This document shows positions 18,780-40,138 of a stretch of DNA of 64,000 nucleotides, piece by piece. The notes beneath the pieces are model-generated. The model had not been told where the DNA came from, ran no database searches, and worked only from the letters and a program-made list of their open reading frames with translations. The stretch is taken from assembly GCA_965115835.1 (NCBI GenBank), contig OZ220471.1, forward strand, positions 1,095,037 through 1,159,036. Reading direction: 5' to 3'. Position 1 is the stretch's first letter; every line of letters begins with the position of its first letter. Both the position numbers and the translations under genes were made by a program. The stretch is from Gammaproteobacteria bacterium. GTDB taxonomy: Bacteria > Pseudomonadota > Gammaproteobacteria > Steroidobacterales > Foliamicaceae.

Positions 18780-19460
18780 GTGCATCACAGGCGCCGCAAC
18801 GGATGGAGGAGAGCCTTCGATCCCGGGTTGTGGCGGGCGGCTCGCGCCGTCGGGATGGTGGGCGCGGCGTCGATGGCGATCCTTGCCTGCGCGGTCGCAT
18901 TGGCGCGGGATACCACGGGGCATGACTGGTACGCGGCTGTCAGGATTACGACCGCCGACCTTTTGATCGCTGTCGGCTTCGACGAAGACGCGCCAGTCGA
19001 ATACCGCAGGGCGGACGGATCTGTCGAGACCGTCAGCCGCTTCGGTCTCACAGTCACTTTGGAGGCTCGCTGGGCGCGGGAGGATATTCTGGAGACGGCC
19101 TGGGACGGGGCGACGCTGGGGGCGTTGTCCGGGTTGGGCGGCGCGCTGCTTTGTCTGGCGCAGATCTGGGGGCGGAGGGACGAGCGCCGAACCGGGCGCC
19201 CCGCATACGAACAGGCGATTGCGCAGGAGCCCGAAGCGCAGGAGGGACTGTCCTTGTCGAGGGAAAGGCTGGCCTCCGCACCGCCATCGCCCGCACCGGG
19301 CTTTGCATCGGCGGCCCCCTCGCCCGAAGCCACCGTTCTGCGTCCCGGGAAACCGGATGCCGTGGGCGCGGGATGCAACGAAACCGCCAGCGGCAAGAAC
19401 GACGACTCGGTGCCTGCCCGTCATACAAAGCCAAAGCGCGACTACGGGCGCTGGCTCTGA
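18780..19460 (+). CDS. hypothetical two-transmembrane protein translationally coupled to the relaxase
   Basis: Two hydrophobic segments (AVGMVGAASMAILACAVALA and LGALSGLGGALLCLAQIW). The stop overlaps the relaxase ATG (TGATG). The C-terminal half is duplicated at 17290-17700. The start codon is uncertain. Confidence 0.5.
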   Translation: MHHRRRNGWRRAFDPGLWRAARAVGMVGAASMAILACAVALARDTTGHDWYAAVRITTADLLIAVGFDEDAPVEYRRADGSVETVSRFGLTVTLEARWAREDILETAWDGATLGALSGLGGALLCLAQIWGRRDERRTGRPAYEQAIAQEPEAQEGLSLSRERLASAPPSPAPGFASAAPSPEATVLRPGKPDAVGAGCNETASGKNDDSVPARHTKPKRDYGRWL

Positions 19461-22438: not shown

Positions 22439-22650
22439 GCAAGGGTCCTATGCGATCCCGAACGGCTACCGGCATATGCTTTTGCTTGGCACGACCGGTA
22501 CCGGAAAACAACTCTCGTGCGTCAGCTCATCGGCACCGCCCCGGCGAAGGAACGGTTTCCTTACGACCTCGACTTCGAAGACTGACCTGCCCCAGCGTCG
22601 CTTTCCTATTCACTTCATGTTGCCTGCTGATAGCATCCCTGCCATGGGAC

Positions 22651-23838
22651 ATGCAAGCGAGCGCCATCATGTTGATTACCGAAAAAGAAATACGGCCCCG
22701 CTTTCTGAAGCATCTTTCCTGGGCAACCGAAATTGATATTGCCACCGCCTGGACCACAAGCAACAAGGCATTGTGCGCTTTGCAGCAACGGGCGCCGGCC
22801 CCTGAGGTCCGCGCCATCGTGGGCCTCTGGGGCAACCTGACCGATCCCTTTGCCCTGAGAATGCTCGCCAACATTGGCCAACTTCGCGGCGCCGACTCGA
22901 CTCGGCGTTTTCACCCGAAAGTGTTTCTGTTCCGCGATGGCGAAAGGCAGGTAGCCTGGGTCGGAAGCGCAAATTTCACATCTGGCGGCTTTGGCATGAA
23001 TGAAGAGGCCATGTTCGAAACTCATGACACTCAATCTGTACAGAGCTGGTTCGATCACCTTTGGGAATACTGCAATCCATTGGACGGCGATGCCATCGAT
23101 GTCTATGCCGAGTCCCGTGACAAGTCGAGAAAGAATAGTCCGCCACCGCTTCGCCCCGCCAAGCCGCCAAATCTATCTCCCATGCAACTACTCGAAAAAA
23201 CAAATGACTGGCCAAGCTACGTCGCGGCATTGGAGCAGTGCGACGTTTGGTGGAGCAGTCGTCATTCGTGGTCCGTCTTGGGCGACCATAGCAGCTGGCG
23301 AGAAACCGTCGAGGTGCTGCACGACATGATCCGCCAGCAGGACTGGAACAAGCTCGACAAGTACGACCGTAATCGTTTGCTCGGATCGACTCGCGACGAG
23401 GGTTGGGCCTTGCTCGGTCGCATGTGGCACACCGCCCGGAATACAGTGTTCGGAGACAGAAGGGAAGAAATTCAGAACATCGTGCACACCGTCCTTGACG
23501 CTGAAGATGCCGCCTTCCCTCAGTTGGCATTTGAATCCTATGCCGCCCTCTGGGAAATTTATGGCGTAGGCTCTGGAATTGCGACGAGACTGCTTACCCT
23601 TGCCCGGCCTGATCGATTTGTTTCGCTGAACAAGGCATCAAGAGCAGGCTTGGCAAAGTTCTCCCGTCTGAAGCCCACCACCCTTGACAAACCAAGCAAC
23701 TACGCCCTTCTTCTCACCGCCATCTACGATCAGGATTGGTATACGGCGCCAATTCCGGGAAACATGCGCGAACGCGCTATCTTCCAGATGCGAGTCGCGT
23801 TGTTGGACTCATTCGTCTACGACCACAAAAAAGGATGA
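22651..23838 (+). CDS. single-HKD phospholipase-D-family (Nuc-like) nuclease domain protein with a C-terminal HhH-like domain
   Basis: HKD motif FHPKVFLFRDGERQVAWVGSANFTSGG. The C-terminal part has a helix-hairpin-helix-like IYGVGSGIATRLLTLARPDRFVSLN. The start is uncertain (ATG at 22651 or 22669; the track ORF start at 22435 overlaps the relaxase stop). Confidence 0.75.
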   Translation: MQASAIMLITEKEIRPRFLKHLSWATEIDIATAWTTSNKALCALQQRAPAPEVRAIVGLWGNLTDPFALRMLANIGQLRGADSTRRFHPKVFLFRDGERQVAWVGSANFTSGGFGMNEEAMFETHDTQSVQSWFDHLWEYCNPLDGDAIDVYAESRDKSRKNSPPPLRPAKPPNLSPMQLLEKTNDWPSYVAALEQCDVWWSSRHSWSVLGDHSSWRETVEVLHDMIRQQDWNKLDKYDRNRLLGSTRDEGWALLGRMWHTARNTVFGDRREEIQNIVHTVLDAEDAAFPQLAFESYAALWEIYGVGSGIATRLLTLARPDRFVSLNKASRAGLAKFSRLKPTTLDKPSNYALLLTAIYDQDWYTAPIPGNMRERAIFQMRVALLDSFVYDHKKG

Positions 23839-23886
23839 CTGATAATCATTCCCGGCGATAGCTTCAGTATGCCTTCAAGGACCAGC

Positions 23887-24022
23887 CCGGCGTCGAACAA
23901 CCGATCCCGGAGGCATCCGCGCCGTCCCCGCCGGAGAGAAAAATCGGGCCGACAATGCCCCGCGACAAGGTGCCCGAGCCGCCTGCTCGCGAAAAACACA
24001 TCGAGATGGATCTCGGCCTCTG
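23887..24022 (+). pseudogene. relic copy of a relaxase 3' end
   Basis: 23887-24022 aligns with 22303-22438 at roughly 85-90% identity. Translation ...GVEQPIPEASAPSPPERKIGPTMPRDKVPEPPAREKHIEMDLGL* versus ...GVEQPIPEASAPPPPERKIEPSIPRDRVPEPPAREKHIEMDMGL*. Confidence 0.65.
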
Positions 24023-24237
24023 ACCTATGGCGCATCTTGTCTTCTGATATCTCCGCAACATCATCATCATTTGGCATTCGTGTTGACGGCTACCGCGAAA
24101 GTCAGGCGGCAATGCCTGGGTCGACGCAATCCCGATTCTCACACTCCCCAATTGGCAGCTTCAGGCATATATTGCTGTCGCGCCAAACAGCCATGAAGCT
24201 TGGGAACGCGTGATACCGGTTTTGCCATTGAGGGAAA

Positions 24238-24720
24238 CTACGGAAACATCCAGAATCCGATGACACCCCACGATACAACGGTCAACAAGACGGCTGCCCA
24301 GTTTGAGAGTAGATCTGCCCCCCTTCTAACAAGAGGTTCAGCATCGCTCCACTCAATCTTCAAATACTTCGTTCCGCTAATGAACTGTGCCTGATTCTGC
24401 TCGACCTTCCCATCGTCTCGCAGGTGGAAATATCTCACGACATACCAATACACATGGGCAAGAACTGCCGTTGCGCCGAGAACGCGTACGCCCCATTCAT
24501 TCGATGGTTGTACGCCGAAAATCTCGAGATCTTGCGGGTTCGCGCCCGCTGCTTCGGACACGACTACAACACTTGCAAGCGCCAGAATGTTCCGTCGGCA
24601 TGCTCTTGCGCCGTCTGGCTCAATCAGCCTCTCGGGGATACTTCTTGCATGTTTTCGGTCCCGCGGCGGGTACACGCGCTCCAGGCCGAGCAAAAGAAAC
24701 AGAATCCGGCGCACTTTCAT
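24238..24720 (-). CDS. hypothetical membrane protein (160 aa)
   Basis: ORF in a lower-GC patch. Hydrophobic segments: ILALASVVVVSEAAG, VLGATAVLAHVYWYVV, NWAAVLLTVVSWGVIGFWMF. No family recognised. Confidence 0.4.
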   Translation of the reverse strand: MKVRRILFLLLGLERVYPPRDRKHARSIPERLIEPDGARACRRNILALASVVVVSEAAGANPQDLEIFGVQPSNEWGVRVLGATAVLAHVYWYVVRYFHLRDDGKVEQNQAQFISGTKYLKIEWSDAEPLVRRGADLLSNWAAVLLTVVSWGVIGFWMFP

Positions 24721-24820
24721 TTGCCCCTATTGTGCTCTTCCACCTGCACAACTGACAGAGTCAAGGAATACCCGGGTTCGATAAAGGGCGCGACCCGGCA
24801 CGATACATGACGGAAATCGC

Positions 24821-25207
24821 TCACGCCGCGCTTTCATTCATTGTCTGGATCATCGTTGTTTGAGCGGCGGCGATGAGGTCTTCGAGTTCCTTTTCCCGCC
24901 GAGCGTCGAGCAATTCATCCTGGTCGAGCGTGGCCATCACATAGACGAAGCGGTAGATTGCCTCGATCAGCGCTGCGTGACCCTTCGACAAGGTAGCTGG
25001 GGGAGGCTCGCCAAGGCGGTTCTCGGCGGCAGCAACCGCGCCCGAACGTACAAGTTCGCCGACGGGAATGCCGCGCCGCGCAGCAGCTTGTTCGATCAGA
25101 TTCCACTCGGAATCGGAGAAGCGGATTGATCGCGAACGGCGCGCATCGCTCTGGTTATCGTCGCGTTTGCTTCCGCTTTCGTGATGGTTCCGGTCGTTTT
25201 CCACCAT
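24821..25207 (-). CDS. ribbon-helix-helix / MobC-like protein (copy B)
   Basis: ...SRSIRFSDSEWNLIEQAAARRGIPVGELVRSGAV... fits the RHH/MobC-type pattern. It is adjacent to the palindrome cluster and the oriT-like block. Confidence 0.6.
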   Translation of the reverse strand: MVENDRNHHESGSKRDDNQSDARRSRSIRFSDSEWNLIEQAAARRGIPVGELVRSGAVAAAENRLGEPPPATLSKGHAALIEAIYRFVYVMATLDQDELLDARREKELEDLIAAAQTTMIQTMNESAA

Positions 25208-25425
25208 TCTTGCAGCCCTCTTCAGGTCAATTCTTGAGCTATTTTCACGCAGTTTCCTGCCTGAAAACGTATGCCGACATGCTGCTTTCGGTCGAAACTG
25301 TCATGCTCGAACAGCCCATCAAGACCCTTCCCACGCAGTCTTTCAATTGAGATTCCGCCAAGGGTTACGAGACTCCCAACCCCGCCCGAGACCCGGATCC
25401 AAGCCTCAAAGGGGTGTGTTTTTCC

Positions 25426-25576
25426 GTATGCTCAGAGCATACATTCCGCTTACAGAGCGTACTACATCGTAGTACGCCCCGTAGTACGGCGCAGTCAATC
25501 TGACTGCTCGCCGCGGCATACGCCGACAGGGCCGCGCGGCGGCATGACGATCCGGTGTAGTACAAAACGACTACAC
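25426..25576. repeat. cluster of four perfect palindromes sharing GTAGTAC/GTACTAC half-sites
   Basis: GTATGCTC-A-GAGCATAC (25426-25442); GCGTACTAC-ATC-GTAGTACGC (25457-25477) plus an extra GTAGTAC at 25481; GCAGTCA-ATC-TGACTGC (25491-25507); GTGTAGT-ACAAAACG-ACTACAC (25555-25576). Confidence 0.7.
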
Positions 25577-25606
25577 TCGCCCCGCAACAGGCCTGAGCGC
25601 CTGTGG

Positions 25607-25677
25607 CGTTGAAACGGCAGGGGATACAGGACAGGCGCGCGCCCGGGGCACAAGGCAGCGTGCTGCGTCCGGTGTGA
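25607..25677 (+). promoter_or_regulatory. candidate oriT core (copy B): conserved block, hairpin and nic-like motif
   Basis: Same conserved block as 3108-3178. Hairpin GCAGC-GT-GCTGC (25655-25666), followed by GCGTCCGGTGTGAGG. This has the GCGTnnGGTGTG pattern of F/R100-type nic regions as I recall them. Confidence 0.5.
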
Positions 25678-26487
25678 GGGTAAAGCTCCGCATGGAGTCG
25701 AGATTGGGCGAAGTTGTCCTGCACACCACTACCGCCTGAAACGCCGGCGTCACAAGGGATGGGAGCCGTCGCGGCGCTTGAGCGAGACGACCGGTCCGCG
25801 ATCTTCGAGTGCGTTCCGCGTTGTCTGTTCGCGAGTCAAGGTAACAGAGCGGGTTGCGCAGCGGAACAGGCAACGCGATTCATCACACGGCGCGCACCGA
25901 TGTTCCCTCACCGCAGACGTTTCGTCTCACATGTTCCATACACTCAACGAGCGTATGACACATGTTCCCGTAGTGCATCGGTGAACGGAGACGGCGCCGG
26001 TATTGCTGGCGATGCGGTCTCCATTCACTTGTTACCGCGAACGCAGAGGTCATGAGACACACGTTACCGCAGCGTGAGTTGCGCGGGTACGGTGACGGTT
26101 GCATGGGCTGTTGTGTGAAGCACATGATCGGACACGGTGACGGCAGCGCCTGCAGAGGAGACCCGACACAGTTTGCGGCAACAGTGCGTATAGAGCGGTG
26201 CGGGATGCCGGTGAACGGCGAAGCCGTCACCGGCGACGCGCAGAAAGAACGAACAAGTGCGCCGAGGCAATGGCCGATGTTGGCGCAACCAACGAGGGCG
26301 AGCCTGGCGAACGCCGCGACAGCGAGCAAGGCGCGAAGCGCCGACGCGAGTGGTGGCCGATATGCAATGGGCAGTGTGGATGTTGTCAGCACGGCGCTGC
26401 CTGCACTGCCGTGCCGGGTTGTGGCGTACGCAATGAACGGACCCGCGTCGCCTTCGATAACGACGCGGGCCCGTGAAGGCGTTGCGG

Positions 26488-27414
26488 TCATGCGACGGGC
26501 ACAACCATGACGGGGATGCCCATCGACTTCGCCTTGTCGATCAGGTTGCCGGTGATGCCGTTGCCGGGGAACGCGATCACGCCCTTCGGCAGCAGGTTCA
26601 GCAGTTCGTCGTTGCGCCGGAACGGGGCGGCACGTCCGTGCGCGTTCCAGTCCGGCTTGCAGACCACCTGGTGAACGCCGTGCTGTTCGGCCCACTGCGC
26701 GGCGATCTTCTCGACGCCGGGGCCGCCGCCGTGCACGAGCACCATGTCGGGATACTTCGCGCGCGCCTTGTCGAGGCTGCCGAAGACGGCGGCGGGGTTC
26801 GCGTCCTTGCCGCCGGCGACGGCGACGAGCGTTCCCTCGGGCAGATGCGCGCGGGTCTCGCGTTCCTTCCTGGCGCGCAGGAAGTCGCGGGCGTCGATGG
26901 CAGCGGAGGTGAGCTTGCCGGTGTGGCTGGTATGGCTGCCGCGCCTCGGACGCCAGACTTCGCCGGTCTCGGCGCGGTAGGCATCGGCGGCCGTGTCGCG
27001 CAGTCTCTCGAACGCATCGCGTCGGTCGCCGAGGTTGCGCGCGCGGTCGGTGACGAGTTCCAGTTCGCGGGCGTTGATCTCGGTGCCGTCCTGTGCGGCT
27101 TGCAGGTCGCGGAGCTTCGGGGTGAGCCGGTCGACACTGCGGTCGAGTCGTCTCATCTGTGCGTCGAGGGCGTTGACGATGCCCCACAGCAGGCTTTCGC
27201 GTTCGTCGGCGATCTGCCAGCCGTCGGGCGCGATGCCTTCGGCAAGGATGCGGAAGGCATCGCTTACTGCTGTGACAGCCCGGTCGCGGTCCCAGATTTC
27301 GCGGGGGTCGAACTCTCCGCGTTCGGGGGTGGCGCCGTAGAGCGCGGCGTTTTCGCAAACGACGGCGGTCGGGGAGTGCGCCTGGTGTGTGGTGATGTTG
27401 TCGATGTTTTGCAT
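26488..27414 (-). CDS. DUF2493/SLOG-like protein (copy B)
   Basis: Start MQNIDNITTHQ at 27414 with GGAGA upstream. It is collinear with 4186-5106 over its whole length (...MVLVHGGGPGVEKIAAQWAEQHGVHQVVCKPDWNAHGRAAPFRRNDELL...). Confidence 0.8.
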   Translation of the reverse strand: MQNIDNITTHQAHSPTAVVCENAALYGATPERGEFDPREIWDRDRAVTAVSDAFRILAEGIAPDGWQIADERESLLWGIVNALDAQMRRLDRSVDRLTPKLRDLQAAQDGTEINARELELVTDRARNLGDRRDAFERLRDTAADAYRAETGEVWRPRRGSHTSHTGKLTSAAIDARDFLRARKERETRAHLPEGTLVAVAGGKDANPAAVFGSLDKARAKYPDMVLVHGGGPGVEKIAAQWAEQHGVHQVVCKPDWNAHGRAAPFRRNDELLNLLPKGVIAFPGNGITGNLIDKAKSMGIPVMVVPVA

Positions 27415-27685
27415 GATGATCTCCTTGCTTTTCGTGTAATAGGCCCTTGGCCCGGTAATGCCGTATGCGATGCTCGCTCCGGCGTATGTTTCATTGGGAC
27501 ACGCGCGCGCAACGAAGCCACCCGCGCAAGCGGGCCGGAACGCAGTGGAGGACCCCGAAGGGGTTGGCGAAGTGAGCACGTGTGGCACGATGGGACATAC
27601 AGAGGAGGGAGCTTTGTTCGGGGTGGGCAAAGCTTCTTGAGAACCTCCGGCCTCGTGCGCCAGCGCCGCAGCGGGACGGCTGTTT

Positions 27686-27913
27686 TCATCGATACGGATG
27701 GGTCATCAGCCGCTGCTCGGCGACTTCGCGGATGCGGGAACGGTCGCGCACCGTAACCCAGCCCCGGGGGTCGTCCTCAAGCAGGACGAGGTAGACCCGC
27801 CGTCCGGGTTCGCGGGCGTCGTCGTGGGCATGGACATCGCCGACGTATGCGCCGTTGGCGTCGTGGATGCGGGATTCGTCGGGACTGACCCGCTTGAAGG
27901 TGATGTTGCTCAT
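27686..27913 (-). CDS. small conserved hypothetical protein (75 aa, copy B)
   Basis: Paralogue of 5511-5741. ATG at 27913 preceded by GGAGAA. Confidence 0.55.
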   Translation of the reverse strand: MSNITFKRVSPDESRIHDANGAYVGDVHAHDDAREPGRRVYLVLLEDDPRGWVTVRDRSRIREVAEQRLMTHPYR

Positions 27914-28094
27914 TGGGTTCTCCGGGTAACGTGACAGGCGCGCGAGCGGACTCCCTCTCCTCTCCGCGCGGTTCACCCGCTTTTCAGCCTCGCTCCCGCG
28001 TATGTGCCGTGGCGAGACTCGAACCGGTCTGCATAAAGAAAGGGGACCGGCGCAGCGAAGCACCGGCCCCCTTGGGAGCGAGCGAAATGCGGTA

Positions 28095-28544
28095 TCAGAA
28101 CGGGATCTGGTCCGTGTCCGGGTTGGCGTCGCCGTCCGGAGCGGGCGAACCGTTGGCAGGCGCCTGGGCTTCCGCCGCCGCGCCGTTGCCGTTCGGCTTG
28201 TCCAGAAACTGGATGCGCGAACCGGGCGCCAGCAGTATCTCGGTCGAGAAGCGGTCCGAGTCCTCGCCTTCCTTGCGCCAGCGACGCGTCTGCATCTTGC
28301 CCGCGAGATAGACCAGACGGCCCTTCCTGGCGTGCTTGACCAGCATGTCGACCAGGCCCGGCTGGAACGTCATCGCCCGATGCCACTCGGTGCGGTCCAC
28401 CCGCTCACCGGAGTTACGGTCGATATAGCTCTCATCGGTCGCGATGCTCAGGTTGGCCACACGGCCCCCCGACACCAGGTTGTTGACTGTGACGTCGGCG
28501 CCGAGGCGACCGATGACTTCCGCGCGATTCAATCCAAAGCTCAT
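28095..28544 (-). CDS. ssb: single-stranded DNA-binding protein (intact copy)
   Basis: MSFGLNRAEVIGRLGADVTVNNLVSGGRVANLSIATDESY...TEWHRAMTF...GKMQTRRW...DQIPF shows the OB fold, a Gly/Ala/Pro linker and the acidic D-x-IPF tail. AAGGAGAA precedes the ATG. Confidence 0.9.
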   Translation of the reverse strand: MSFGLNRAEVIGRLGADVTVNNLVSGGRVANLSIATDESYIDRNSGERVDRTEWHRAMTFQPGLVDMLVKHARKGRLVYLAGKMQTRRWRKEGEDSDRFSTEILLAPGSRIQFLDKPNGNGAAAEAQAPANGSPAPDGDANPDTDQIPF

Positions 28545-28623
28545 GGGATTCTCCTTTTGCTGAATGATGACAATGGGTGAGTGAACGGCCAGGGAACCGG
28601 AGCCTCTCTCCGGCCCCTCCCGT

Positions 28624-28800
28624 TCATCCCTCCCCCGCTTCCCTCCAACTCCCGGTCTCCGCGACTTCGCGGTCGGGACAACGGCGGGTCCAATCGTCGG
28701 CGAGGGTCTCACGCACGGACGGAACGTCGATGCCCAGTTCCGCGAGCAAGGCGTCGCCGGTGGGGGTGATAAGGTCGTAGTCGGTGTCGGGTGCAAACAT
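28624..28800 (-). CDS. small hypothetical protein (58 aa)
   Basis: MFAPDTDYDLITPTGDALLAELGIDVPSVRETLADDW... with AAGGAGA upstream. The N-terminal 30 aa are conserved with 40178-40456. Confidence 0.5.
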   Translation of the reverse strand: MFAPDTDYDLITPTGDALLAELGIDVPSVRETLADDWTRRCPDREVAETGSWREAGEG

Positions 28801-29027
28801 GCGGGTCTCCTTCGGTGGTCGCGCCCGGGACGGGGGAGCCTTTCTCCCTCCACTCTCCCGGACGCTTGCCCGGCGCTTCGCGAAACTCCGACTCTTGAGA
28901 ACAGCAACAGGAATGCGACGGCGCGGTAATCGGCACAGACGGCAGGTCAATCCGGGACGGCGCCCCCCGCAGGCGTGCCGAGCAGACGCCAAGGCTGAAA
29001 GCCCCCTGCAACCGCTGTCCGCCGGCG

Positions 29028-30047
29028 TCACTCCCAGCCCGTCAGGGTGGCGAGCGGATGCACATCGCGGATCACCACGACCTGATCCCCGGACAGCTTC
29101 TCGAAGGCGATGAAGGCAGCCGCCTCCATCTCGTCGTCGAAGGTTCCCAGACACTCCTCCGTTGCGACCAGGATTACCGCGAAGCTCGGCGGATACACCG
29201 GCATGCCGCGGACATGACCGGAGCGTTCATACGACCGGCGGGCGCAAGTCTCGCAACGAGCTGCCCCGTGGGAAGGAGCGCCGCAATGCGTGCATCGGCG
29301 GGCCGCCCTGCGGCTCCAGTACCGGCGTCGCGAGGCGGCGTTTTTCCGTTCGGGCGAACCGCGCTCGGCCTCCAGGGCGGAACAGGGCGCACAGCGGGAG
29401 CCGCCGTCGCTCGCAGGCCCTCCGCACACTGTGCATAACCGGGCGGCGCGCCGGGCCGCATACAGTTCGCGCTCGGCGGCTTGGCGAACCTCCCGGCACG
29501 GTTCGCATGTTGTGCCGCCGGCGGCGGGCGGACGGCAGCCGCACCGTACGCACACCCCGGCATCAAGCCGTGCTTGCCGGCGTTTCCGGCTCGCGGCGCG
29601 GGCGCTTCTGCGCTTGGCCCGCACATTCTTGCCGCCGTACTTCAGCCCCGCCGACCGCGCTCTGGCGTACCGGATGCGTTCGGCCTCGCGCCTCTTTTTG
29701 GCGCACCATTCGCACAGGCGGCGGGCGGGCTCGGCAGGCTGCTGCCCGCACTTGAGGCACAACCCCGCCTCACGGCGCCGATCGGCCTGCCGGCGCGCCC
29801 GCTCGCGCTCGCAGGCTTTCGCCCGCACGGGATCGCGTCGGGGCTTCCCGGCAGCGCGCAGCCGGGCGTCTCGCGCACGGTCGGCGGCGCGAGATCGCTC
29901 ATTGCACGGCTCACAAATACTTCGATCGGGCGCAGGCCGGCGCTTTCCGCACTTCGGGCACAAGCCGGCGGTGCGCCGTTCGGCAGTACGCCGGGCCACC
30001 CGCTCGCGGTCGCGCACCCGACGCATCTCGGGGTTCTTCCAAGGCAT
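29028..30047 (-). CDS. Arg-rich protein with five tandem CxxC...CxxC zinc-ribbon repeats (339 aa, copy B)
   Basis: Repeats read GLCPKCGKRRPAPDRSICEPC, GLCLKCGQQPAEPARRLCEWC, GVCVRCGCRPPAAGGTTCEPC, CTVCGGPASDGGSRCAPC, CTHCGAPSHGAARCETC. Each is followed by an Arg/Ala helix. An acidic approximately 60-aa C-terminal domain follows. Start MPWKNPEM at 30047. Confidence 0.7.
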   Translation of the reverse strand: MPWKNPEMRRVRDRERVARRTAERRTAGLCPKCGKRRPAPDRSICEPCNERSRAADRARDARLRAAGKPRRDPVRAKACERERARRQADRRREAGLCLKCGQQPAEPARRLCEWCAKKRREAERIRYARARSAGLKYGGKNVRAKRRSARAASRKRRQARLDAGVCVRCGCRPPAAGGTTCEPCREVRQAAERELYAARRAARLCTVCGGPASDGGSRCAPCSALEAERGSPERKNAASRRRYWSRRAARRCTHCGAPSHGAARCETCARRSYERSGHVRGMPVYPPSFAVILVATEECLGTFDDEMEAAAFIAFEKLSGDQVVVIRDVHPLATLTGWE

Positions 30048-30134
30048 GAGGGCATCTCCAGTCTCGGTGGAAGTCGGGACGGCAGGACACCCTGCCGGCA
30101 AAGGACCGGCGGGGCGTTCCAGGGAGCTTGCCCT

Positions 30135-30461
30135 TCAGCCCTTCTGGCGACGCTCCACAAAGATGCCCATGGCCCGCCAGCCCCACAGCTGCACCCCGCA
30201 ATTGCGCTGCTTGATCCCCGTTGCGATGATGATCTCGTCGCGGGCCGGGCGCATCTTCTCGACCTCTTTCAGCGAGACAATGACCAAGCGCGGCTTGCGC
30301 CGTCCTTTCGGTCTGGCGCCGTCGGTCTCGACGGGAACGATGTCGCCGTCCGCTCGGGACAGGTAGCGCTGAATGACGTAGCGGTCGTCGTCGAGTCCGC
30401 TGCCTGTGAAGTGGGTGAGAAAGGTGCGCGCGTCGCCGCGCGGTGCAAGTGCCGCCTGCAT
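30135..30461 (-). CDS. conserved hypothetical protein (108 aa), first gene of module B
   Basis: MQAALAPRGDARTFLTHFTGSGLDDDRYVIQRYLSRADGDIVPVE... with GAGGAG upstream. 95% identical paralogue at 41791-42117. Confidence 0.6.
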   Translation of the reverse strand: MQAALAPRGDARTFLTHFTGSGLDDDRYVIQRYLSRADGDIVPVETDGARPKGRRKPRLVIVSLKEVEKMRPARDEIIIATGIKQRNCGVQLWGWRAMGIFVERRQKG

Positions 30462-30785
30462 CGTGCCGTGCTCCTCAAGGTCAGGTGAAAGGGAACGGCG
30501 GCAGCGACTTCCTCGGGAGCGCGACCGCCGTCCCCCTTCCGGCCAGACTCCGCCTCTCGATGGCGCAAGGCGACGCAGCGGCGCAGGCAAATGACAGCCC
30601 CTGCGACGGCTATGCCTATACCGACTGGCGTGGCGGATGCCCGGCACCAACCATGTTTGTTGGAATGGCTGCTGCCACTACCGTCTTGTGCCCCTCGGGA
30701 AAGCGCCCAAAGCGCTTCTGTGTGATTACTGGCGAGGCCAGCAATTCCCGCTAACGATGCAGAGTCGTTCGTTCAGGGCCGGATG

Positions 30786-32527
30786 CCTAGCCCGCATATT
30801 TCACCGAATGGGAGAGATGGGGCCTTGAACTGTATAATAATCAGTGTCTTAAATGACCTATACAGGAGGCCCCAATGGTGACACAGTGTACCCCAAAATC
30901 CCTTTCTTTTTCCCCCTCCGGTCGACGTCAGGTAATCGGTCGATTCGATGGCGGTCCGATGACCTCGGACGCGGGGGGTCTGCTGCTGCGCGAGACGGAT
31001 TTTCGCATCGGGCTGTCGAGGCGTTTGAAGTCGTGCTTTGCGGACTACCGCAACCCCAACAGTGTGGAGCACAGGCTGCGGCCATTGCTGGCGCAGCGGG
31101 TGATCGGTCTGGCGCTGGGTTACGAGGATCTCAACGACCATGACGAGTTGCGCCGCGATCCGTTGATGGCGTTGCTGGTGGGGCGCTCGGACGGGACGGG
31201 TGCGCGCCGGGCACGCCGTGCGCGTCGGGCACGCCGTCGCAACGGTGACCGTGCGCTGGCCGGTTCAAGCACCTTGAATCGCCTGGAGTTGGGCGACGAA
31301 GGAGCGGCTTGGGATCGCTACAAGCGCATTGTTGGGAACCCGAAGGCGATGGACCGGTTGCTGGTGGATGTGTTCATGGAGTCTTATGCCAAGCCGCCGG
31401 AGGCGATCTGGCTGGATTTGGATGCGACCGACGACCCGCTGCACGGCAATCAGCAGGGGCGATTTTTCCATGGCTACTATGGGCAGTATTGCTATCTGCC
31501 TTTGTATATCTTTTGCGGCGAGCACCTGCTGTGTGCCCGCCTTCGCGAGGCGGATGTGGATCCCGCCGCCGGCAGCGTGGAAGAGTTGGAGCGGATCGTT
31601 GGGCAGATTCGCACAAGGTGGCCGAGCGTTCCCATCGTCGTGCGGGGCGACTCGGGGTTTTGCCGGGAGGCCATCATGGCCTGGTGCGAGCAACACGGCG
31701 TGGAGTATGTCTTGGGGCTGGGAGGCAATGCCCGATTGGTGAAACGGATCGACAAGGCGCTGCGCAAGTCCCGCGCCCGTCACGTGGCCACCGGGCAGCC
31801 GTCGCGGCGATTCCGGTCGTTTCGATACCGCACGCGCAAAACCTGGGGTCGAGCGCGGCGTGTGGTGGGCAAGGCGGAATGGTTGGCCAAGGGAGCCAAC
31901 CCACGGTTTGTGGTCACCAGCCTGCCCTGCCAGGTCGCCGGCGCCCAGCATTTGTATGAGGATCTTTATTGCGCCCGCGGCGAGATGGAGAACCGGATCA
32001 AGGAACAGCAACTGGGCCTGTTCGCCGACCGCACCAGCAGCGCCAGCATGCGGGCCAACCAACTGCGGCTGTACTTTGCCTCGTTCGCCTATGTGCTGAT
32101 GCAGGGTCTGCGGCGGCTGGGACTGGCCGGTACCGCCTGGGCCAAGGCGCAATGCACCACGATCCGGTTGCAATGGCTGAAGCTGGCTGCGCGTGTGCGG
32201 ATCACCGCGCGCAAGGTCTGGCTGTCGTTCTCCGAGTCCTACCCCCGCGCGGAGGCCTTCGGGCAGATCCTGGAGCGCCTGCGCACCCATCCGCCCTGGC
32301 AAGCAACCGGGTAAAGCCCCTTTGCATGCCCTTTTGCCCGGCGAGCACCCTCGCCGATGGCTTCCTTCGCACGGCATCCGCACCATCCTCCGAAACAGCG
32401 CGAAAACTACCGTTTCAACGCTTGCCACCATCCACTCGAAGCCTCGATCAAGGCTGGCTCATCCCAAAAACCGCCCCCAACGCCAAATTGGGCCTATCCA
32501 TGCAATTGGTGAAATATGCGGGCTAGG
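30786..32527 (+). mobile_element. IS1380-family insertion sequence, complete
   Basis: Perfect 20-bp terminal inverted repeats: CCTAGCCCGCATATTTCACC (30786-30805) and its reverse complement ending at 32527. Single 479-aa transposase. TSD not resolved. Confidence 0.85.
30875..32314 (+). CDS. IS1380-family transposase
   Basis: Typical N-terminus ...GRFDGGPMTSDAGGLLLRETD...LAQRVIGLALGYEDLNDHDELRRDPL... and DDE region ...WLDLDATDDPLHGNQQGRFFHGYY...VVRGDSGFC.... Confidence 0.9.
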   Translation: MVTQCTPKSLSFSPSGRRQVIGRFDGGPMTSDAGGLLLRETDFRIGLSRRLKSCFADYRNPNSVEHRLRPLLAQRVIGLALGYEDLNDHDELRRDPLMALLVGRSDGTGARRARRARRARRRNGDRALAGSSTLNRLELGDEGAAWDRYKRIVGNPKAMDRLLVDVFMESYAKPPEAIWLDLDATDDPLHGNQQGRFFHGYYGQYCYLPLYIFCGEHLLCARLREADVDPAAGSVEELERIVGQIRTRWPSVPIVVRGDSGFCREAIMAWCEQHGVEYVLGLGGNARLVKRIDKALRKSRARHVATGQPSRRFRSFRYRTRKTWGRARRVVGKAEWLAKGANPRFVVTSLPCQVAGAQHLYEDLYCARGEMENRIKEQQLGLFADRTSSASMRANQLRLYFASFAYVLMQGLRRLGLAGTAWAKAQCTTIRLQWLKLAARVRITARKVWLSFSESYPRAEAFGQILERLRTHPPWQATG

Positions 32528-32602
32528 GTTGTGACCATTCAGGCGTTGGACCGGAACTGATTTTCGAGCATTGTCACGCTTGGCAGGAATTGCTGTGGCG
32601 AG

Positions 32603-34502
32603 CAGGACCATTCCAAAGTCGTGGCGAGTCCAGCTCTATGCGCCGAGGTGCAGCGAGATGGTCCGTGCGTGGTCCGCTGGCGCGTCGGATGCCGTGGTTT
32701 CAGCGGCCGAAGCCGCGTCGGGTGATCTGCCGCATTGCGTCGCCCTGTCGGGCGGCGAAGTGGCGGTGGACTTGCGGCATGTAGTCGAATCGTTCGTCGA
32801 GTCGCACGATCAAGATGGCCGCGTTTACGAGGCAAGCGAGGTTGCGGCGGAGACGCTTTGCCTTGACGCGGTTGCGGTCCTCGTCGTAACTGACGTCTCG
32901 CACATAGTGCAGCCGGTTCTCGATCTCCCAATGGCCCCGGTTGAGGCGAAGCAATTCACTCGCCGATGCCTGTTCCGGCCCCAGCGAGGTGACGCCGTAC
33001 ACGGTTTCGGTCGAGGTGCGCCGGGTGCGCAGGACATGCCGTTCGCGCTCAATGCGGATGGCTTGGCGGCGGTGAGGCATCGCAACGCAATCGGGCGAGA
33101 CGAGATCGAGAGGGATCACCCGACAGCGGCGGGTCTCGATGCGTTCATGCCCCTTCTCGACCGTCTTGTGCCCGGTGGCCGCGACTTGCGCGGCCTCCCA
33201 GTCGAGGCCCGAGGTCAGGCCGTCAAGCAGTTCCTGCTGGTTGCCCTTGACCGTCATCAGGTAGAACCCGCCGCGCTCGGCGATCAATTGCGCCGTCTTG
33301 CGCTGCGTGTGCAGGGCGTCGAGCGTCACCACCCGATCCTGGATGTCGAGACGCTGCAGCAGCGCGCGCGCACCCAGAATCTCGCCGCCAGCCCCGTCGC
33401 AGGCCTCCTGACCGCAGACCAGACCGCTGCCGTGCTCGACCACCGCCACCAGCACGCGCTCGCTGTCCTTGCCCTGGATCCACTCTGCCGCAGTCACCTT
33501 GCCGTCAACCGCAACCGCGCCGTGCGGAGACCGGTTCTGCTCAATGAAGCGGCTCAGCGCTTCGTCGAGCACTTCCGGAGCAACCTGCGACAGCACCCGG
33601 TGAAACGAGGTTCGCGACGGCGCGACATAGCGCTTGCGGCTCGGACTCCAGAACGCCCGTACCGCCGCCAGTTGCGCCTGGGTCAGACGAGCAGCGAACT
33701 CCCCGATCGTCACCACCCCGCGCACCCCTGCCAGCTTCGCCGCCAGAGCAATCGAAAAGATCGTCGCCAACGAGTGGCGGATGCCCCGCGCCTTGCGATA
33801 CTCCGGCACTTGGCGGAAAAACTCATACAGGCTCCTGAGACGCTCGACCTCCGGCAGTCGCGGCGGCGCCGCGACCAGCCCCCACTCCTCGTCGTCCTCC
33901 GGCTGGCGCAAGGCCGTGCATGCCGACGAGCGCAACTCCCGTATCAGCACCCTCTTCGGCTCGCCGTGCTCGCGCCAGCCACCCCCCGGAACCCGCGCAT
34001 AGCCGCGCGTCCTGCCAATCTCCCGCCAGTTGGCGGCACGGTAGCAGGTTCCGCTGAACCGGGCCGGATCGACGAAGGTCTCCGCCAGCAACACCGGATG
34101 GCCGGTCTGCGCCTTCATGTCCTGCGACAGCCGACGCAGCGACAAGCCGAGAACCCGCGAGGCGAGATTGGGCGCGCGAGCGCCCGGCAGCACCAGAAAC
34201 CGCGTGTTGTCCGCGACCAGCCGCAGCCGACGAAACTGCTGCTCGCGAGTCCAGCCGATCAGACGATCACGCACTCCGACCTTGAACGAACCCGCATGCC
34301 AGCCCAGCAGCGCCAGCCAGGTCCCGTCCGGCAACTCCGCGACCTGACGGACACCGCCACCAACCAGACCACGAAACCCAAGATAGTGGTGACGGGACAT
34401 CAGCACATCCCAGCGAGCGGACTCGGCTCGATCCGTCACCGGCCGCACCGACACCTCCGCCAGATCGAACCTGGACCAAGCAACTGACATCTCCATCGCC
34501 GA
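32603..34502 (-). mobile_element. ISAs1-like element copy 1 (lacks its 5' terminal repeat)
   Basis: The right-end sequence CAGGACCATTCCAAAGTCGTGGCGAG lies at 32603. Only 7 bp remain upstream of the transposase ATG before another IS end begins. It lacks a roughly 110-bp 3'-UTR segment present in the other copies. Confidence 0.8.
32700..34496 (-). CDS. transposase: DUF4338-like N-terminal domain fused to an ISAs1-family DDE domain (598 aa)
   Basis: N-terminus ...MSRHHYLGFRGLVGGG...LGWHAGSFKVGVRDRLIGWT...NNTRFLVLPG...NLASRVLG...LAETFVDPARFSGTCYRAANW (DUF4338-like, from memory). C-terminus ...VAVDGKV...VTLDALHTQRKTAQ...HWEIENRLHYVRDVSYDEDRNRV (ISAs1/H-repeat type). Confidence 0.85.
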   Translation of the reverse strand: MEMSVAWSRFDLAEVSVRPVTDRAESARWDVLMSRHHYLGFRGLVGGGVRQVAELPDGTWLALLGWHAGSFKVGVRDRLIGWTREQQFRRLRLVADNTRFLVLPGARAPNLASRVLGLSLRRLSQDMKAQTGHPVLLAETFVDPARFSGTCYRAANWREIGRTRGYARVPGGGWREHGEPKRVLIRELRSSACTALRQPEDDEEWGLVAAPPRLPEVERLRSLYEFFRQVPEYRKARGIRHSLATIFSIALAAKLAGVRGVVTIGEFAARLTQAQLAAVRAFWSPSRKRYVAPSRTSFHRVLSQVAPEVLDEALSRFIEQNRSPHGAVAVDGKVTAAEWIQGKDSERVLVAVVEHGSGLVCGQEACDGAGGEILGARALLQRLDIQDRVVTLDALHTQRKTAQLIAERGGFYLMTVKGNQQELLDGLTSGLDWEAAQVAATGHKTVEKGHERIETRRCRVIPLDLVSPDCVAMPHRRQAIRIERERHVLRTRRTSTETVYGVTSLGPEQASASELLRLNRGHWEIENRLHYVRDVSYDEDRNRVKAKRLRRNLACLVNAAILIVRLDERFDYMPQVHRHFAARQGDAMRQITRRGFGR

Positions 34503-34708
34503 CAGGACCATTCCAAAGTCGTGGCGAGTCCAAGTTCGTGCGCCGAGGTGCAGCGAGATGGTCCGTGCGTGGTCCGCTGGCGCGTCGGGTAGTCGGGGAT
34601 TTTGGCAGGCCGGCGCTTTCCGGGCCGTCGGTTCCAGGCTTTTTGGCGGCCCGCGTCGTCGAGTGACGCAGTTCGGGCAGAGTGGGTGCGTCGTATGCCG
34701 TCGTTTCA
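34503..34708 (-). mobile_element. inverted ISAs1-like 3'-end fragment (stop codon plus 3' UTR plus terminal repeat)
   Basis: The reverse complement of 34503-34708 matches 37988-38193 of copy 3. It is joined head-on at 34708 to the middle of another transposase copy. Confidence 0.65.
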
Positions 34709-36087
34709 GTCGCGGCGCCGCCGCGACTGCCGGAGGTCGAGCGTCTCAGGAGCCTGTATGAGTTTCTCCGCCAAGTGCCGGAATATCGCAAGGCGCGGGG
34801 TATCCGCCACTCGTTGGCGACGATCTTTTCGATTGCTCTGGCGGCGAAGCTGGCGGGGGTGCGCGGGGTGGTGACGATCGGGGAGTTCGCTGCACATCTG
34901 ACCCAGGCGCAACTGGCGGCGGTGCGGGCGTTTTGGAGTCCCAGCCGCAAGCGCTATGTCGCGCCGTCGCGAACCTCGTTTTACCGGGTGCTGTCGCAGG
35001 TTGCTCCGGAAGTGCTCGACGAAGCGCTGAGCCGCTTCATCGAGCAGAACCGGTCTCCGCACGGCGCGGTTGCGGTTGACGGCAAGGTGACTGCGGCGGA
35101 GTGGATCCAGGGCAAGGACAGCGAGCGCGTGCTGGTGGCGGCGGTCGAGCACGGCAGCGGTCTGGTCTGCGGTCAGGAGGCCTGCGACGGGGCCGGCGGC
35201 GAGATTCTGGGTGCGCGCGCGCTGCTGCAGCGTCTCGACATCCAGGATCGGGTGGTAACGCTCGACGCCCTGCACACGCAGCGCAAGACCGCGCAATTGA
35301 TCGCCGAGCGCGGCGGGTTCTACCTGATGACGGTCAAGGGCAACCAGCAGGAACTGCTCGACGGCCTGGCCTCGGGCCTCGACTGGGAGGCCGCGCAAGT
35401 CGCGGCCACCGAGCACGAGACGGTCGAGAAGGGGCATGGACGCATCGAGACCCGCCGCTGTCGGGTGATCCCTCTCGATCTCGTCTCGCCCGATTGCGTT
35501 GCGATGCCCCACCGCCGCCAAGCCATCCGCATTGAGCGCGAACGGCATGTCCTGCGCACCCGGCGCACCTCGACCGAAACCGTGTACGGCGTCACCTCGC
35601 TGGGGCCGGAACAGGCCTCGGCGAGTGAATTGCTTCGCCTCAACCGAGGCCATTGGGAGATCGAGAACCGGCTGCACTATGTGCGTGATGTCAGCTACGA
35701 CGAAGACCGCAACCGCGTCAAGGCAAAGCGTCTGCGCCGCAACCTCGCCTGTCTCGCAAACGCGGCCATCTCGATCGTGCGACTCGACGAACGATTCGAC
35801 TACATGTCCCAGGCTCACCGCCACTTCGCCGCCCGACAGGGCGACGCCATGCGACAAGTCACCCGACGCGGCTTCGGCCGCTGAAACGACGGCATCCGAC
35901 GCCTCCACTCCGCCCGAACTGCGTCACCCGACGACGCGGGCCGCCAAAAAGCCCAGAACCGACGGCCCGGAAAGCGCCGGCCTGCCGAAATCCCCGACTA
36001 CCCGACGCGCCAGCGGACCACATACGGACCATCTCGCTGCGCCTCAGCGCACGAACTTGGACTCACCGCGACTTTGGAATGGTCCTG
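34708..36087 (+). pseudogene. ISAs1-like element copy 2, 5'-truncated (transposase codons about 205-598 plus 3' end)
   Basis: Begins at ...VAAPPRLPEVERLRSLYEF. It is collinear with copy 3 from 36812 onward and ends with ...GACTTTGGAATGGTCCTG at 36087. Confidence 0.75.
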
Positions 36088-40130: not shown

Positions 40131-40138
40131 GTTGACGG
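40131..40138. repeat. right copy of the 8-bp direct repeat GTTGACGG
   Basis: See 7454-7461. Confidence 0.6.

Follow-up and report, generated by a model that had tools for sequence, protein, structure and literature searches.

Gene content of the element and its six-gene block

The window analyzed here is a 64,000-nucleotide stretch of a gammaproteobacterial contig, and positions 7484-40130 of it form an integrative mobilizable element with an integrase, a MOBF relaxase, and a putative ribbon-helix-helix (RHH) accessory protein. Every ORF of at least 400 aa within 7484-40130 could be accounted for, and none encodes a coupling protein or a secretion ATPase; the island has no room for a coupling protein or a type IV secretion system. 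In uncultivated Alpha- and Gammaproteobacteria, Binatia, and Chloroflexota, the family occurs in multiple copies.

Six conserved ORFs are found between 26488 and 30461, all on the minus strand. The original prediction spoke of seven; its statement on the strand holds, but its own list contains six genes. From the left, these are a SLOG/YAcAr (DUF2493) gene (26488-27414; 308 aa; Pfam PF10686, E 3e-22), p75 (27686-27913), ssb (28095-28544; 149 aa; PF00436, E 6e-18, TIGR00621, phrog_44), p58 (28624-28800), the gene for a 339-aa, arginine-rich protein with five Cys4 zinc ribbons (29028-30047), and p108 (30135-30461). The SLOG protein has a conserved N-terminal region of ~190 aa and is conserved in frame along its whole length, with third-codon-position bias; 353 relatives are present in genomes. 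The conserved 75-aa protein p75 and the conserved acidic 58-aa protein p58 have 37 and 40 distinct homologues, respectively, in the loci, and neither gave a family match in the libraries searched. Five invariant CxxC...CxxC pairs (20/20 Cys invariant) and a small C-terminal α/β domain make up the zinc-ribbon protein, whose AF2 model (pLDDT 83) gave no fold match in the PDB; it has >778 homologues, none of them named, and was not found in the plasmid collection. The basic 108-aa protein p108 is highly conserved (232 homologues, 83% mean column identity), was modeled with a pLDDT of 82 in one of five AF2 models, and has no PDB or Pfam match. Since the uncharacterized proteins match nothing in Pfam, NCBIfam, PHROGs, or PADLOC (none of them built specifically for anti-defence) or among solved folds, an anti-defence role for them can be hypothesized from position only. 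No known anti-defence gene, whether psiB, ardA, klcA, a methyltransferase gene, or another, is present in the element.

A second, outer copy of the module lies split on either side of the element, as had been proposed, with the same arrangement on the minus strand. Its left part (4186-7483), identified by Pfam and self-similarity, consists of SLOG, a p75-like ORF, a DUF7146+Toprim primase-like gene (5817-7358, minus strand; phrog_510 DNA primase, E 5e-40), and a 5'-truncated ssb; its right part (40131-42117), for which the junction was aligned, holds the ssb 5' end, p58, the zinc-ribbon protein gene, and p108. The self-matches amount to 79% identity for 4205-5293 against 26510-27594, 75% for 6990-7441 against 28013-28469, and 91% for 40131-42224 against 28482-30568. 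An IS insertion at 30788-32525 damages the window copy upstream of p108.

The order p108-zinc ribbon-p58-SSB-(Toprim)-p75-SLOG is co-oriented in every locus found, and recurrent cargo genes within the block, such as an AlkB-like oxygenase in 11 loci, are co-oriented too. In a Chloroflexota MAG, public gene calls show six genes of matching size (108, 339, 58, 154, 75, and 305 aa), all on one strand. A terminator-like minus-strand hairpin after ssb (28040-28073; a 14-pair stem, then a T-rich tail) suggests at least two transcription units, and the six genes would therefore not constitute one early operon.

A conserved F-like nick motif on the plus strand beside the block

The predicted oriT core (25607-25676, plus strand) comprises a hairpin, GCAGC-GT-GCTGC (25655-25666), followed by GTCCGGTGT|G, with a predicted nick at 25675|25676; the plus strand at the putative relaxase cut site reads ...GCAGCGTGCTGCGTCCGGTGTGAGG. 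The experimentally mapped nic of F is 5'-TTTGCGTGGGGTGT|GGT, in which roles have been described for bases -1, -2, and -4 (PMC2504302). The core at 25607-25676 matches F nic TTTGCGTGGGGTGT|GG, and these three bases are invariant throughout the element family. An outer core at 3108-3177 (plus strand; predicted nick 3176|3177) is 86% identical, and its TGCGTGGGGTGT|GG equals F over 14 nt. The motif has two matches in the whole window, 25658-25676 and 3159-3177, both on the plus strand, against a chance expectation of 0.31.

Iterated nhmmer searches recovered the core in ~75/80 related loci, 300-1100 nt beyond the SLOG stop and on the same strand relative to the genes throughout; because these loci are homologous, related elements, the counts (~75, 80) do not represent independent events. 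Across the family the core is a hairpin and then G-T-S-S-G-G-T-G-T|G. The hairpin is 93.9% paired, with covariation matched by 0/500 shuffles, and pair 14-20 occurs as UA35/GC22/CG17/UG3, three Watson-Crick types with no unpaired cells; the plus strand is stabler than its complement in 57/77 sequences. A small candidate hairpin, CTCCGCATGGAG followed by TC, is located 16-30 nt 3' of the predicted nick (25692-25705, plus strand), and most relatives have a counterpart of variable sequence followed by GTC.

To the left of the nick, inverted and direct GTAGTAC repeats (25451-25580, plus strand; inverted repeats I2 and I15) fold stably in the local context and are probably binding sites of an accessory protein. 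The gene at 24821-25207 (minus strand) may encode the RHH relaxosome accessory protein, a weak assignment from NikA-like, DUF6290, and RelB-type matches (E ~0.002); it is transcribed away from the nick, and many loci have a homologue after the nick. This gene and a 160-aa ORF (24238-24720) are both minus-strand genes, and the orientation of the block thus continues across the nick. The TrwC/TraI-type (MOBF) relaxase-helicase gene (19151-22438, plus strand; Pfam TrwC, E 1e-84; AAA_30, E 1e-45; UvrD_C_2) is convergent with the block and is predicted to be the last to enter. A relaxase homologue is found on the opposite strand, 2-9 kb past the nick, in ~36/80 loci, for which flanks of 10 kb were read.

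Near-identity to the mapped F nic, a covarying hairpin 5' of the cut, and a MOBF relaxase in cis make the plus-strand nick at 25675|25676 a well-supported prediction, in agreement with the one made originally. From a nick in this position it follows that DNA to the right would enter first, that the plus strand would be transferred, and that this strand would be the template for all six genes. Six co-oriented genes are by themselves unremarkable; it is the constant polarity between nick motif and block across the ~75 related loci that exceeds chance, and this is the comparison that had been proposed as a check.

A strand-specific hairpin upstream of SLOG

A new feature of these elements is a conserved, strand-specific hairpin immediately upstream of SLOG, which is predicted to be the first gene to enter. 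It is long and imperfect, spans 27484-27600 on the plus (transferred) strand, and ends ~70 nt upstream of the SLOG start codon; it is present in 75/80 loci at a median distance to SLOG of 63 nt. Among 30 distinct homologues, the hairpin is 89.2% paired versus 33-45% when the structure is slid, 13 pairs are altered on both sides, and covariation is 0.255 versus 0.117, with 0/500 shuffles equally high. A long variant folds at -86.3 kcal/mol (z -5.9). There are 110 G.T pairs on the T-strand versus 23 on the sense strand. Folding energies are -26.5 and -20.1 kcal/mol, respectively, but the plus strand is G-rich over the non-coding spacer, enough alone for better folding there, so the energy bias over the whole gap is unspecific and only the pair-level wobble count is specific.

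The 3' arm bears TTGGCG-N16-CACGAT together with an extended -10 TG (27564-27591). Both the arm and the orientation are those that transcription of SLOG from single-stranded DNA would require. The matches to the E. coli consensus are weak (4/6 at -35 and 3-4/6 at -10), and a generic promoter scan of 24000-31000 found no promoter. TTG, the G of TG, A2, and T6 are invariant in 54 distinct hairpin copies; because most of the arm is conserved, structure alone may account for this. In duplex form the hexamers point the opposite way, antisense to p75. The hairpin is thus a candidate single-stranded-DNA promoter or single-strand origin, by analogy with F Frpo or an sso.

The sole other conserved hairpin is an 85-nt structure in the p108 5' leader (30462-30546, minus strand; -46.6 kcal/mol, z -3.6), conserved in 34 sequences and without an Rfam match. 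Its base-stem pairs are GU in 47 cases versus AC in 4, and the sense strand is stabler in 33/34 sequences. It folds better on the mRNA strand and is therefore unlike a single-stranded-DNA promoter, leaving such a candidate for at most one transcription unit. The idea that the block could be transcribed from the incoming strand is accordingly supported in part: the SLOG hairpin is of the kind needed and strand specific, but the p108 hairpin favors the mRNA strand.

Discussion

If the relaxase cut elsewhere or on the other strand, the block would be a trailing region and its orientation meaningless for transfer. A second GGTGT does follow an inverted repeat at 25553-25580, and the relaxase gene is convergent and, at 3.2 kb, unusually distant. 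The alternative GGTGT site, however, is likewise on the plus strand and is not kept in the outer copy, whereas the conserved motif occurs on the plus strand only, has its hairpin located 5' of the cut just as F and R388 do, and in the outer copy is identical to the mapped nic of F across 14 nt; the repeat-rich stretch of putative accessory sites lies, together with the RHH gene, on the other side, an arrangement shared with F. We regard a misplaced nick as very improbable.

A different function for the block deserves more weight, although we consider it rather unlikely: the excised element might replicate by rolling circle from oriT like ICEBs1, with ssb, the primase, and the T-strand hairpin (then purely a single-strand origin) serving second-strand synthesis in donors and recipients and the genes expressed normally from duplex DNA. 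SSB, the Toprim primase, and AlkB are DNA-metabolism functions, a known anti-defence gene was not found in the element, and the structure and strand bias of the hairpin suit an sso as well as a promoter; in ICEBs1 an orientation-specific stem-loop sso adjoins the relaxase gene, and ssos recruit RNA polymerase or primase (PMC4595007). A free-standing origin, however, needs no tie to a gene start, and the hairpin keeps its median 63 nt to SLOG regardless of the upstream gene, with promoter-like bases whose arm and orientation both lead into SLOG. The two roles are also compatible, since F Frpo does both (PMC12672017). The hairpin could instead belong to a plus-strand antisense RNA (FinP- or Sok-like) controlling SLOG translation, with gene orientation reflecting mere operon structure. 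Such an RNA would show a G.U wobble bias identical to that of the T-strand, and in duplex DNA TTGGCG-N16-CACGAT would serve as a normal promoter reading rightward; plasmids commonly control leader regions by antisense RNA. RNA from this motif would begin at ~27598 and exclude the hairpin, however, and an RNA containing it would require a further promoter, located within the coding region of SLOG or its leader. What lies downstream of the motif varies by locus (p75, Toprim, or ssb) and so offers no conserved antisense target, and Rfam gave no family match. Antisense control thus seems quite unlikely.

Like F, the element has a MOBF relaxase, an almost identical nic-proximal sequence (GCGTGGGGTGT|GG), ssb and small genes 3' of the nick with the transferred strand as template for all, a long T-strand hairpin with -35/-10-like boxes upstream of a leading gene (alike in form), and, on its trailing side, a putative RHH accessory gene with putative binding repeats. 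Unlike F, it is an island in the chromosome that bears an integrase and lacks both tra/T4SS genes and the anti-defence genes listed above; its ssb is accompanied by SLOG/DUF2493, the zinc-ribbon protein, and three small orphan proteins, its relaxase gene is convergent rather than co-oriented, and its hosts are uncultivated marine-type bacteria of several phyla. R388 (IncW) shares a TrwC-family relaxase-helicase, a transferred-strand hairpin that precedes the nick by a few nucleotides, and ssb in the first-entering DNA, there an establishment region with ardC, ssb, and others. R388-type nic is TGTCT|A, whereas the site here is of F type (GGTGT|G), and ArdC, a trwA-trwB-trwC operon, and a coupling protein are absent from the element. 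ICEBs1 sso1 and the ssos of rolling-circle plasmids resemble the SLOG hairpin as orientation-specific structured T-strand elements, in ICEBs1, as here, near DNA-processing genes of an integrative element, and the candidate here could likewise prime a second strand; there is no sequence relationship, the relaxase family differs, and the hairpin here is tied to a gene start with promoter-like bases leading into the gene. Full-length SLOG homologues (~46% identity) occur on 737 alphaproteobacterial plasmids, of which 471 are predicted to be conjugative. In pTiCFBP4996 the homologue directly follows a toprim gene, a few kilobases from traG/traD/traC, and the outer window copy shares this Toprim-SLOG neighborhood; unlike the element, the alphaproteobacterial Toprim-DUF2493 plasmids lack the zinc-ribbon protein, and the relaxase is MOBQ in the one checked. 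Toprim_3 proteins are primases of conjugative elements (PMC5512222). In leading regions the genes all point the same way, and promoters of the single-stranded-DNA type are hairpins that carry -35/-10 boxes and have no activity in duplex form (PMC11541004; PMC12672017).

We conclude that the region is probably the leading region of a chromosomal integrative mobilizable element, the first DNA into a new cell on conjugation. In the mechanism that we propose, the relaxase would recognize the plus strand by its short hairpin and F-like GTCCGGTGT|G, cut at 25675|25676, and remain bound to the 5' end, and a helper type IV secretion system would export the plus strand 5' to 3'. A spacer of ~0.8 kb would enter, then SLOG, p75, ssb, p58, the zinc-ribbon gene, and p108, with the incoming strand as template for all six. 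The hairpin upstream of SLOG, best folded on that strand, would hold the -35/extended -10-like bases of its distal arm in duplex, so that RNA polymerase could start at the hairpin base and make a SLOG transcript and/or a primer before a complement exists. SSB, together with the primase or AlkB-like enzyme of sister elements, would then care for and convert the incoming single strand, and the other four proteins may act at the same stage as SSB.

Gene content and orientation of the block

Six genes with starts fixed by homology lie on the minus strand between positions 26488 and 30461: SLOG, encoding a SLOG/YAcAr (DUF2493) protein (26488-27414); p75 (27686-27913); ssb (28095-28544); p58 (28624-28800); the gene for a protein with five zinc ribbons (29028-30047); and p108 (30135-30461). 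The original prediction placed seven genes here, all in one orientation; the orientation holds, and the number is corrected to six. Left of a 1.28-kb non-coding gap, likewise on the minus strand, are a gene for an RHH/NikA-like protein (24821-25207; a weak match) and a family-less 160-aa ORF (24238-24720). Further left, on the plus strand, follow genes for a PLD nuclease, identified with Pfam (22435-23838), and a TrwC-type relaxase-helicase (19151-22438; PF08751, E value of 1e-84, plus helicase domains). The 3' end of the relaxase gene (22292-22438) is repeated at 88% just past the PLD-nuclease gene (23877-24023), as in a cassette insertion, and a 5' relaxase fragment is repeated upstream (17303-17725 versus 19037-19477, 80% identity). 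A second, split copy of the module had also been proposed; it is real (4186-7483 and 40131-42117), carries a DUF7146+Toprim primase-like gene, and is 75 to 79% identical to the inner copy in its left part and 91% in its right part.

We retrieved 80 loci with genes for relatives of SLOG and confirmed at least 353 relatives at 72 to 82% identity, all in metagenome-assembled genomes, with hosts that include Alpha- and Gammaproteobacteria, Binatia, and Chloroflexota. Such protein identity across several phyla would imply a recent spread of the element family. Several genomes hold at least 10 copies of it; members of the family include OZ219785-OZ219788 and the fetched locus L081 (in the series L001-L083). 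Searching the loci with the window proteins by tblastn recovered a fixed order on one strand, p108, zinc-ribbon protein, p58, ssb, (Toprim), p75, and SLOG, with the predicted nick downstream of SLOG, often followed by an RHH gene; in ∼36 loci, a relaxase homologue lies on the opposite strand within the 10-kb flank, 2 to 9 kb beyond the nick. Public gene calls for one Chloroflexota genome give the identical six gene sizes.

Variable slots in the block hold recurrent co-oriented genes: a 166-aa family (26 loci), an AlkB-like oxygenase (11 loci), and a 115-aa family (9 loci). ORFs on the minus strand of these slots were called as transposases, recombinases, or singletons, and a group II intron reverse transcriptase occurs there on both strands. 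Examples of the extra co-oriented genes in sister elements are found at L035:7094-7672, L015:6856-7356, and related loci, and include the AlkB-like 2OG-Fe(II) oxygenase and the 166-aa family; AlkB-like 2OG-Fe(II) oxygenases are a single-stranded DNA repair family. Gene calls based on GC3 gave co-orientation of 60 to 95% on the leading side versus 12 to 48% on the other side, values that are noisy because spurious antisense ORFs arise in GC-rich DNA; our orientation counts were therefore based on homology-anchored genes instead.

A predicted F-like nic site

Both copies of the module share a 70-nt block (25607-25676 and 3108-3177; 86% identical), which iterated nhmmer searches recovered in ∼75 of the 80 loci, 300 to 1,100 nt past the SLOG stop codon and always on the same strand relative to SLOG. 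Its core is a short hairpin followed by G-T-S-S-G-G-T-G-T/G-A-G, where the slash marks the predicted cut. The family consensus, GCGTSSGGTGT/G, compares with GCGTGGGGTGT/G in F, and T at -1, G at -2, and G at -4 are invariant in 77 sequences. The mapped F nic site reads 5'-TTTGCGTGGGGTGT/GGT, and its bases -1, -2, and -4 form a specificity-determining three-base interaction (PMC2504302). The inner copy has GCGTCCGGTGT/GA and the outer copy TGCGTGGGGTGT/GG, both on the plus strand, and the motif has just these two occurrences in the window; a plus-strand oligonucleotide for the predicted nick site reads AAGGCAGCGTGCTGCGTCCGGTGTGAGGGTAAAG. The hairpin, of 5 to 6 bp, lies on the nicked strand, 9 nt ahead of the cut. 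It is 93.9% paired, with covariation reached by none of 500 shuffles; one pair is UA (35 sequences), GC (22), CG (17), or UG (3) and is never unpaired. The plus strand folds more stably than its complement in 57 of the 77 sequences.

The site has three features of a MOBF oriT: a TrwC-type relaxase in cis, an F-like nic sequence, and a hairpin 5' of the nick. The conserved motif, confined to the plus strand, and the MOBF relaxase in cis argue for cleavage of the plus strand by the relaxase between 25675 and 25676. From such a cut the plus strand would exit 5' to 3' rightwards, and this strand is the template for all six window genes; the core genes are co-oriented in all related loci. By analogy with F and R388, we infer that the block region is the first DNA to enter a recipient. 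Repeat-rich DNA (25451-25580) and the RHH gene are found on the opposite side of the predicted cut from the block, placed as are the accessory sites and traY/traM in F. The direction of transfer argued for in the original prediction is well supported by this comparison: the check it had proposed, of nic polarity across homologous elements, gave a polarity fixed relative to SLOG in ∼75 of 80 loci. By the leading-region criteria of Samuel et al. 2024, the block is on the 3' side of the predicted nick in the transferred strand, and of the marker genes it includes ssb; the orientation of the block relative to the nick, as first noticed, is confirmed.

At 12 to 30 nt on the 3' side of the predicted nick, most relatives have a small, sequence-variable hairpin that precedes GTC (25692-25705 in the window; equivalents in L001-L080). 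Its position is unusual, because known MOBF repeats are located 5' of the nick; it may act as a terminator of leftward transcripts or as a protein-binding site. In the outer copy, the spacer between nick and SLOG contains ∼5 tandem copies of a ∼146-nt unit (3393-4100).

A conserved strand-biased hairpin upstream of SLOG

In leading regions, the transferred strand is expected to carry hairpin promoters that have no activity in double-stranded form (PMC11541004; PMC12672017), and we compared the folding of both strands for every intergenic gap across the loci. Asymmetry over whole gaps was dropped as a single-strand signal; it is non-specific, given the G-richness of the plus strand in the spacer. 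That first-entering spacer (25676-26487) and its equivalents in 68 loci have a G-rich transferred strand (mean GC skew of +0.135), which is the more stably folding strand in 67 of 68 cases, and form a mosaic of conserved patches. The bias may reflect either composition or further single-strand elements.

The hairpin upstream of SLOG (plus strand, 27484-27600) is long and imperfect, as is typical of Frpo, the single-stranded DNA promoter of F, and is conserved in 30 distinct sequences. In these, 89.2% of cells are paired versus 33 to 45% with slid partners, and 13 pairs are altered on both sides; covariation is 0.255 versus 0.117, a value matched by none of 500 shuffles. The G.T pairs number 110 on the transferred strand versus 23 on the sense strand (14 versus 2 pair positions), and the window sequence folds with -26.5 kcal/mol on the transferred strand versus -20.1 on the sense strand. 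Most relatives have a ∼130-nt insertion that lengthens the hairpin; one long variant, of 260 nt, reaches -86.3 kcal/mol (z of -5.9) on the transferred strand versus -74.3 on the other, exceeding the -75 kcal/mol used in a screen of pESBL for single-stranded DNA promoters (PMC12672017). Of the 80 loci, 75 carry the hairpin, as do both window copies, with constant polarity, and it ends a median of 63 nt before the SLOG start irrespective of the upstream gene.

The distal (3') arm contains TTGGCG, then 16 nt ending in TGG, then CACGAT. Across 54 distinct copies the spacing of the pattern TTG-N3-N16-(TG)n-NACRAT does not vary, and neither do TTG, the G of TG, and hexamer positions 2 and 6. In the folded transferred strand, the distal arm would form the non-template strand, with the -35-like hexamer nearer the loop and the -10-like hexamer nearer the base, so that transcription would exit the base at ∼27484, into SLOG. 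This geometry is the one required of an Frpo-type promoter and makes the hairpin a candidate for one. The hexamers are in the correct arm and orientation but are weak relative to the consensus and lie within a generally conserved arm, and a generic sigma-70 scan was negative. The same structure would equally suit a single-strand origin that depends on RNA polymerase, such as sso1 of ICEBs1 (PMC4595007), and the two functions may coincide, as F Frpo acts as both promoter and single-strand origin (PMC12672017). Less likely, the hairpin is part of a plus-strand antisense RNA.

A second structure, at 30462-30546 on the minus strand (42118-42202 in the second module), behaves differently. This conserved 85-nt hairpin directly precedes the ribosome-binding site of p108, which is the most upstream of the six genes. 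The closing helix of the hairpin pairs GGCCG with CGGC beside the start codon, and it folds with -46.6 kcal/mol (z of -3.6). A role as a single-strand promoter was ruled out by its base stem, with 47 GU versus 4 AC combinations, and by the greater stability of the sense strand in 33 of 34 sequences. It resembles a leader RNA structure and is a candidate cis-regulatory RNA; an Rfam search of the whole window, repeated more sensitively for 25000-30900, gave no match, this hairpin included.

Proteins encoded by the block

Clear family assignments were obtained for ssb and the primase; Toprim_3 proteins are DnaG-like primases of conjugative elements (PMC5512222). The SLOG protein shows in-frame conservation over its full 308 aa, with third-position bias. 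Full-length homologues with ∼46% identity are encoded on 737 alphaproteobacterial plasmids, of which 471 are predicted to be conjugative, and on an Agrobacterium Ti-type plasmid the homologue immediately follows a toprim gene. For the YAcAr branch of SLOG, binding or processing of NAD-derived nucleotides has been predicted (PMC7824862), and DUF2493 is essentially unstudied in the literature. Sequence and profile searches against solved structures returned only a glycine-loop resemblance to Rossmann enzymes; the SLOG domain may be either DprA-like or of the signalling type.

The zinc-ribbon protein has >778 unnamed homologues, with 20 invariant cysteines, arginine-rich helices, and a small C-terminal domain. 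Its confident model (pLDDT of 83) matched no solved fold, an exact-sequence look-up of the window protein returned nothing, and the protein is absent from the plasmid collection. A megablast search of 24500-30700 against plasmids likewise found nothing. For p108, 232 homologues have a mean column identity of 83%; apart from a single C-terminal helix its model is all-beta, and it matched no solved fold. An AlpA/Xis-type helix-turn-helix excisionase, guessed from the sequence, was ruled out by the all-beta model and by the lack of any Pfam match in 32 members. The p75 and p58 proteins, the latter strongly acidic, are each kept in ∼40 loci, and no family was found for either. Searches of the module proteins against Pfam, NCBIfam, PHROGs, and PADLOC gave nothing beyond ssb, primase, and the SLOG domain, and specifically no known anti-defence or anti-SOS family; it is therefore by position that the other proteins are candidates for anti-defence functions.

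The block resides in a relaxase-only integrated element

The window is a patchwork of GC-rich mobile DNA within chromosomal sequence, with TonB receptors and metabolic genes to the right. The inner block is housed in a 32.6-kb segment (7484-40130) with a P4-type integrase gene at its left end (7641-8912). The segment sits within the ssb gene of the older, outer module, which is split because of this insertion; the sequence GTTGACGG occurs at both junctions (7476-7483 and 40123-40132), and the interrupted ssb can be rejoined across 7483/40131. AT-rich repeats of the type TGATATAA(G/A)G are found close to both ends. The junction sequences had no matches, and no second example of the junction was found; in locus L033, an ssb fragment lies beside an integrase gene of 67% identity, but the position differs.

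All ORFs of at least 400 aa in the segment were identified, as the integrase, transposases, an SMC-like ATPase, the relaxase, and the PLD nuclease. None is a component of a type IV secretion system or a type IV coupling protein, and there is no room for either. With an integrase, a relaxase, and an oriT and without mating-pair formation or coupling protein genes, the segment is a relaxase-only integrative mobilizable element.

Several further features were recorded in the window. An IS1380-type element (30788-32525) interrupts the minus-strand block on its upstream side; its flanks (30739-30787 and 32526-32600) are contiguous at 60200-60324, an empty site showing that it landed in a short repeated element. 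Another IS is present in three copies (32700-34511, 34682-35884, and 36194-37990), in two of which the N-terminal domain of the DDE transposase matches Druantia DruA (E value of 1e-17). Cargo on the trailing side includes a C5 methylase and a HindVP-like endonuclease, which form a type II restriction-modification pair (10287-12243), and an 841-aa SMC-like ATPase with weak similarity to Lamassu LmuB (14680-17205). A very GC-rich ORF (52231-53127) contains a repeat array in a 45-nt register (52342-53043).

DISCUSSION

The architecture described here exemplifies a rule for leading regions that was published in 2024, and the concept is not new. What is new is the setting, relaxase-only islands with an F-type nic in uncultivated bacteria of several phyla; a conserved gene set in which searches of Pfam, NCBIfam, PHROGs, and PADLOC recognised no known leading-region effector except ssb and primase; and a covarying, strand-biased hairpin that, as a candidate element, is placed where it could drive expression of, or priming at, the gene that enters first.

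Cyclic ADP-ribose isomers are ligands of the SLOG domains in Thoeris effectors, and one possibility, by analogy, is that the SLOG domain of the block binds or destroys nucleotide immune signals. A wider reading, which we put forward tentatively and consider rather doubtful as a whole, is that the hairpin represents a new class of single-stranded DNA promoter outside Enterobacteria, also usable as a single-strand origin; that SLOG would be the first product made in the recipient; and that SLOG, the zinc-ribbon protein, p108, p75, and p58 would form an unrecognised establishment or anti-defence kit common to islands across at least four bacterial classes or phyla.

To our knowledge, nearly all demonstrations of leading regions and single-stranded DNA promoters come from the F and IncI1 plasmids of E. 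coli, and we are aware of little on strand conversion or expression upon entry of integrative elements. The family provides a compact and highly conserved example in a setting far from those plasmids, and it suggests a rule by which leading regions may be found in integrated elements: an F-like nic motif, its polarity, and a SLOG gene. Conjugative plasmids of cultivable Rhizobiales and Rhodobacterales commonly carry SLOG, and part of the hypothesis is therefore testable in tractable hosts. In these islands the first-entering six-gene block is fixed and encodes mostly orphan proteins, with a hairpin exactly where a single-strand promoter is expected; the hairpin, SLOG, the zinc-ribbon protein, and p108 are clonable candidates for new establishment or anti-defence functions.
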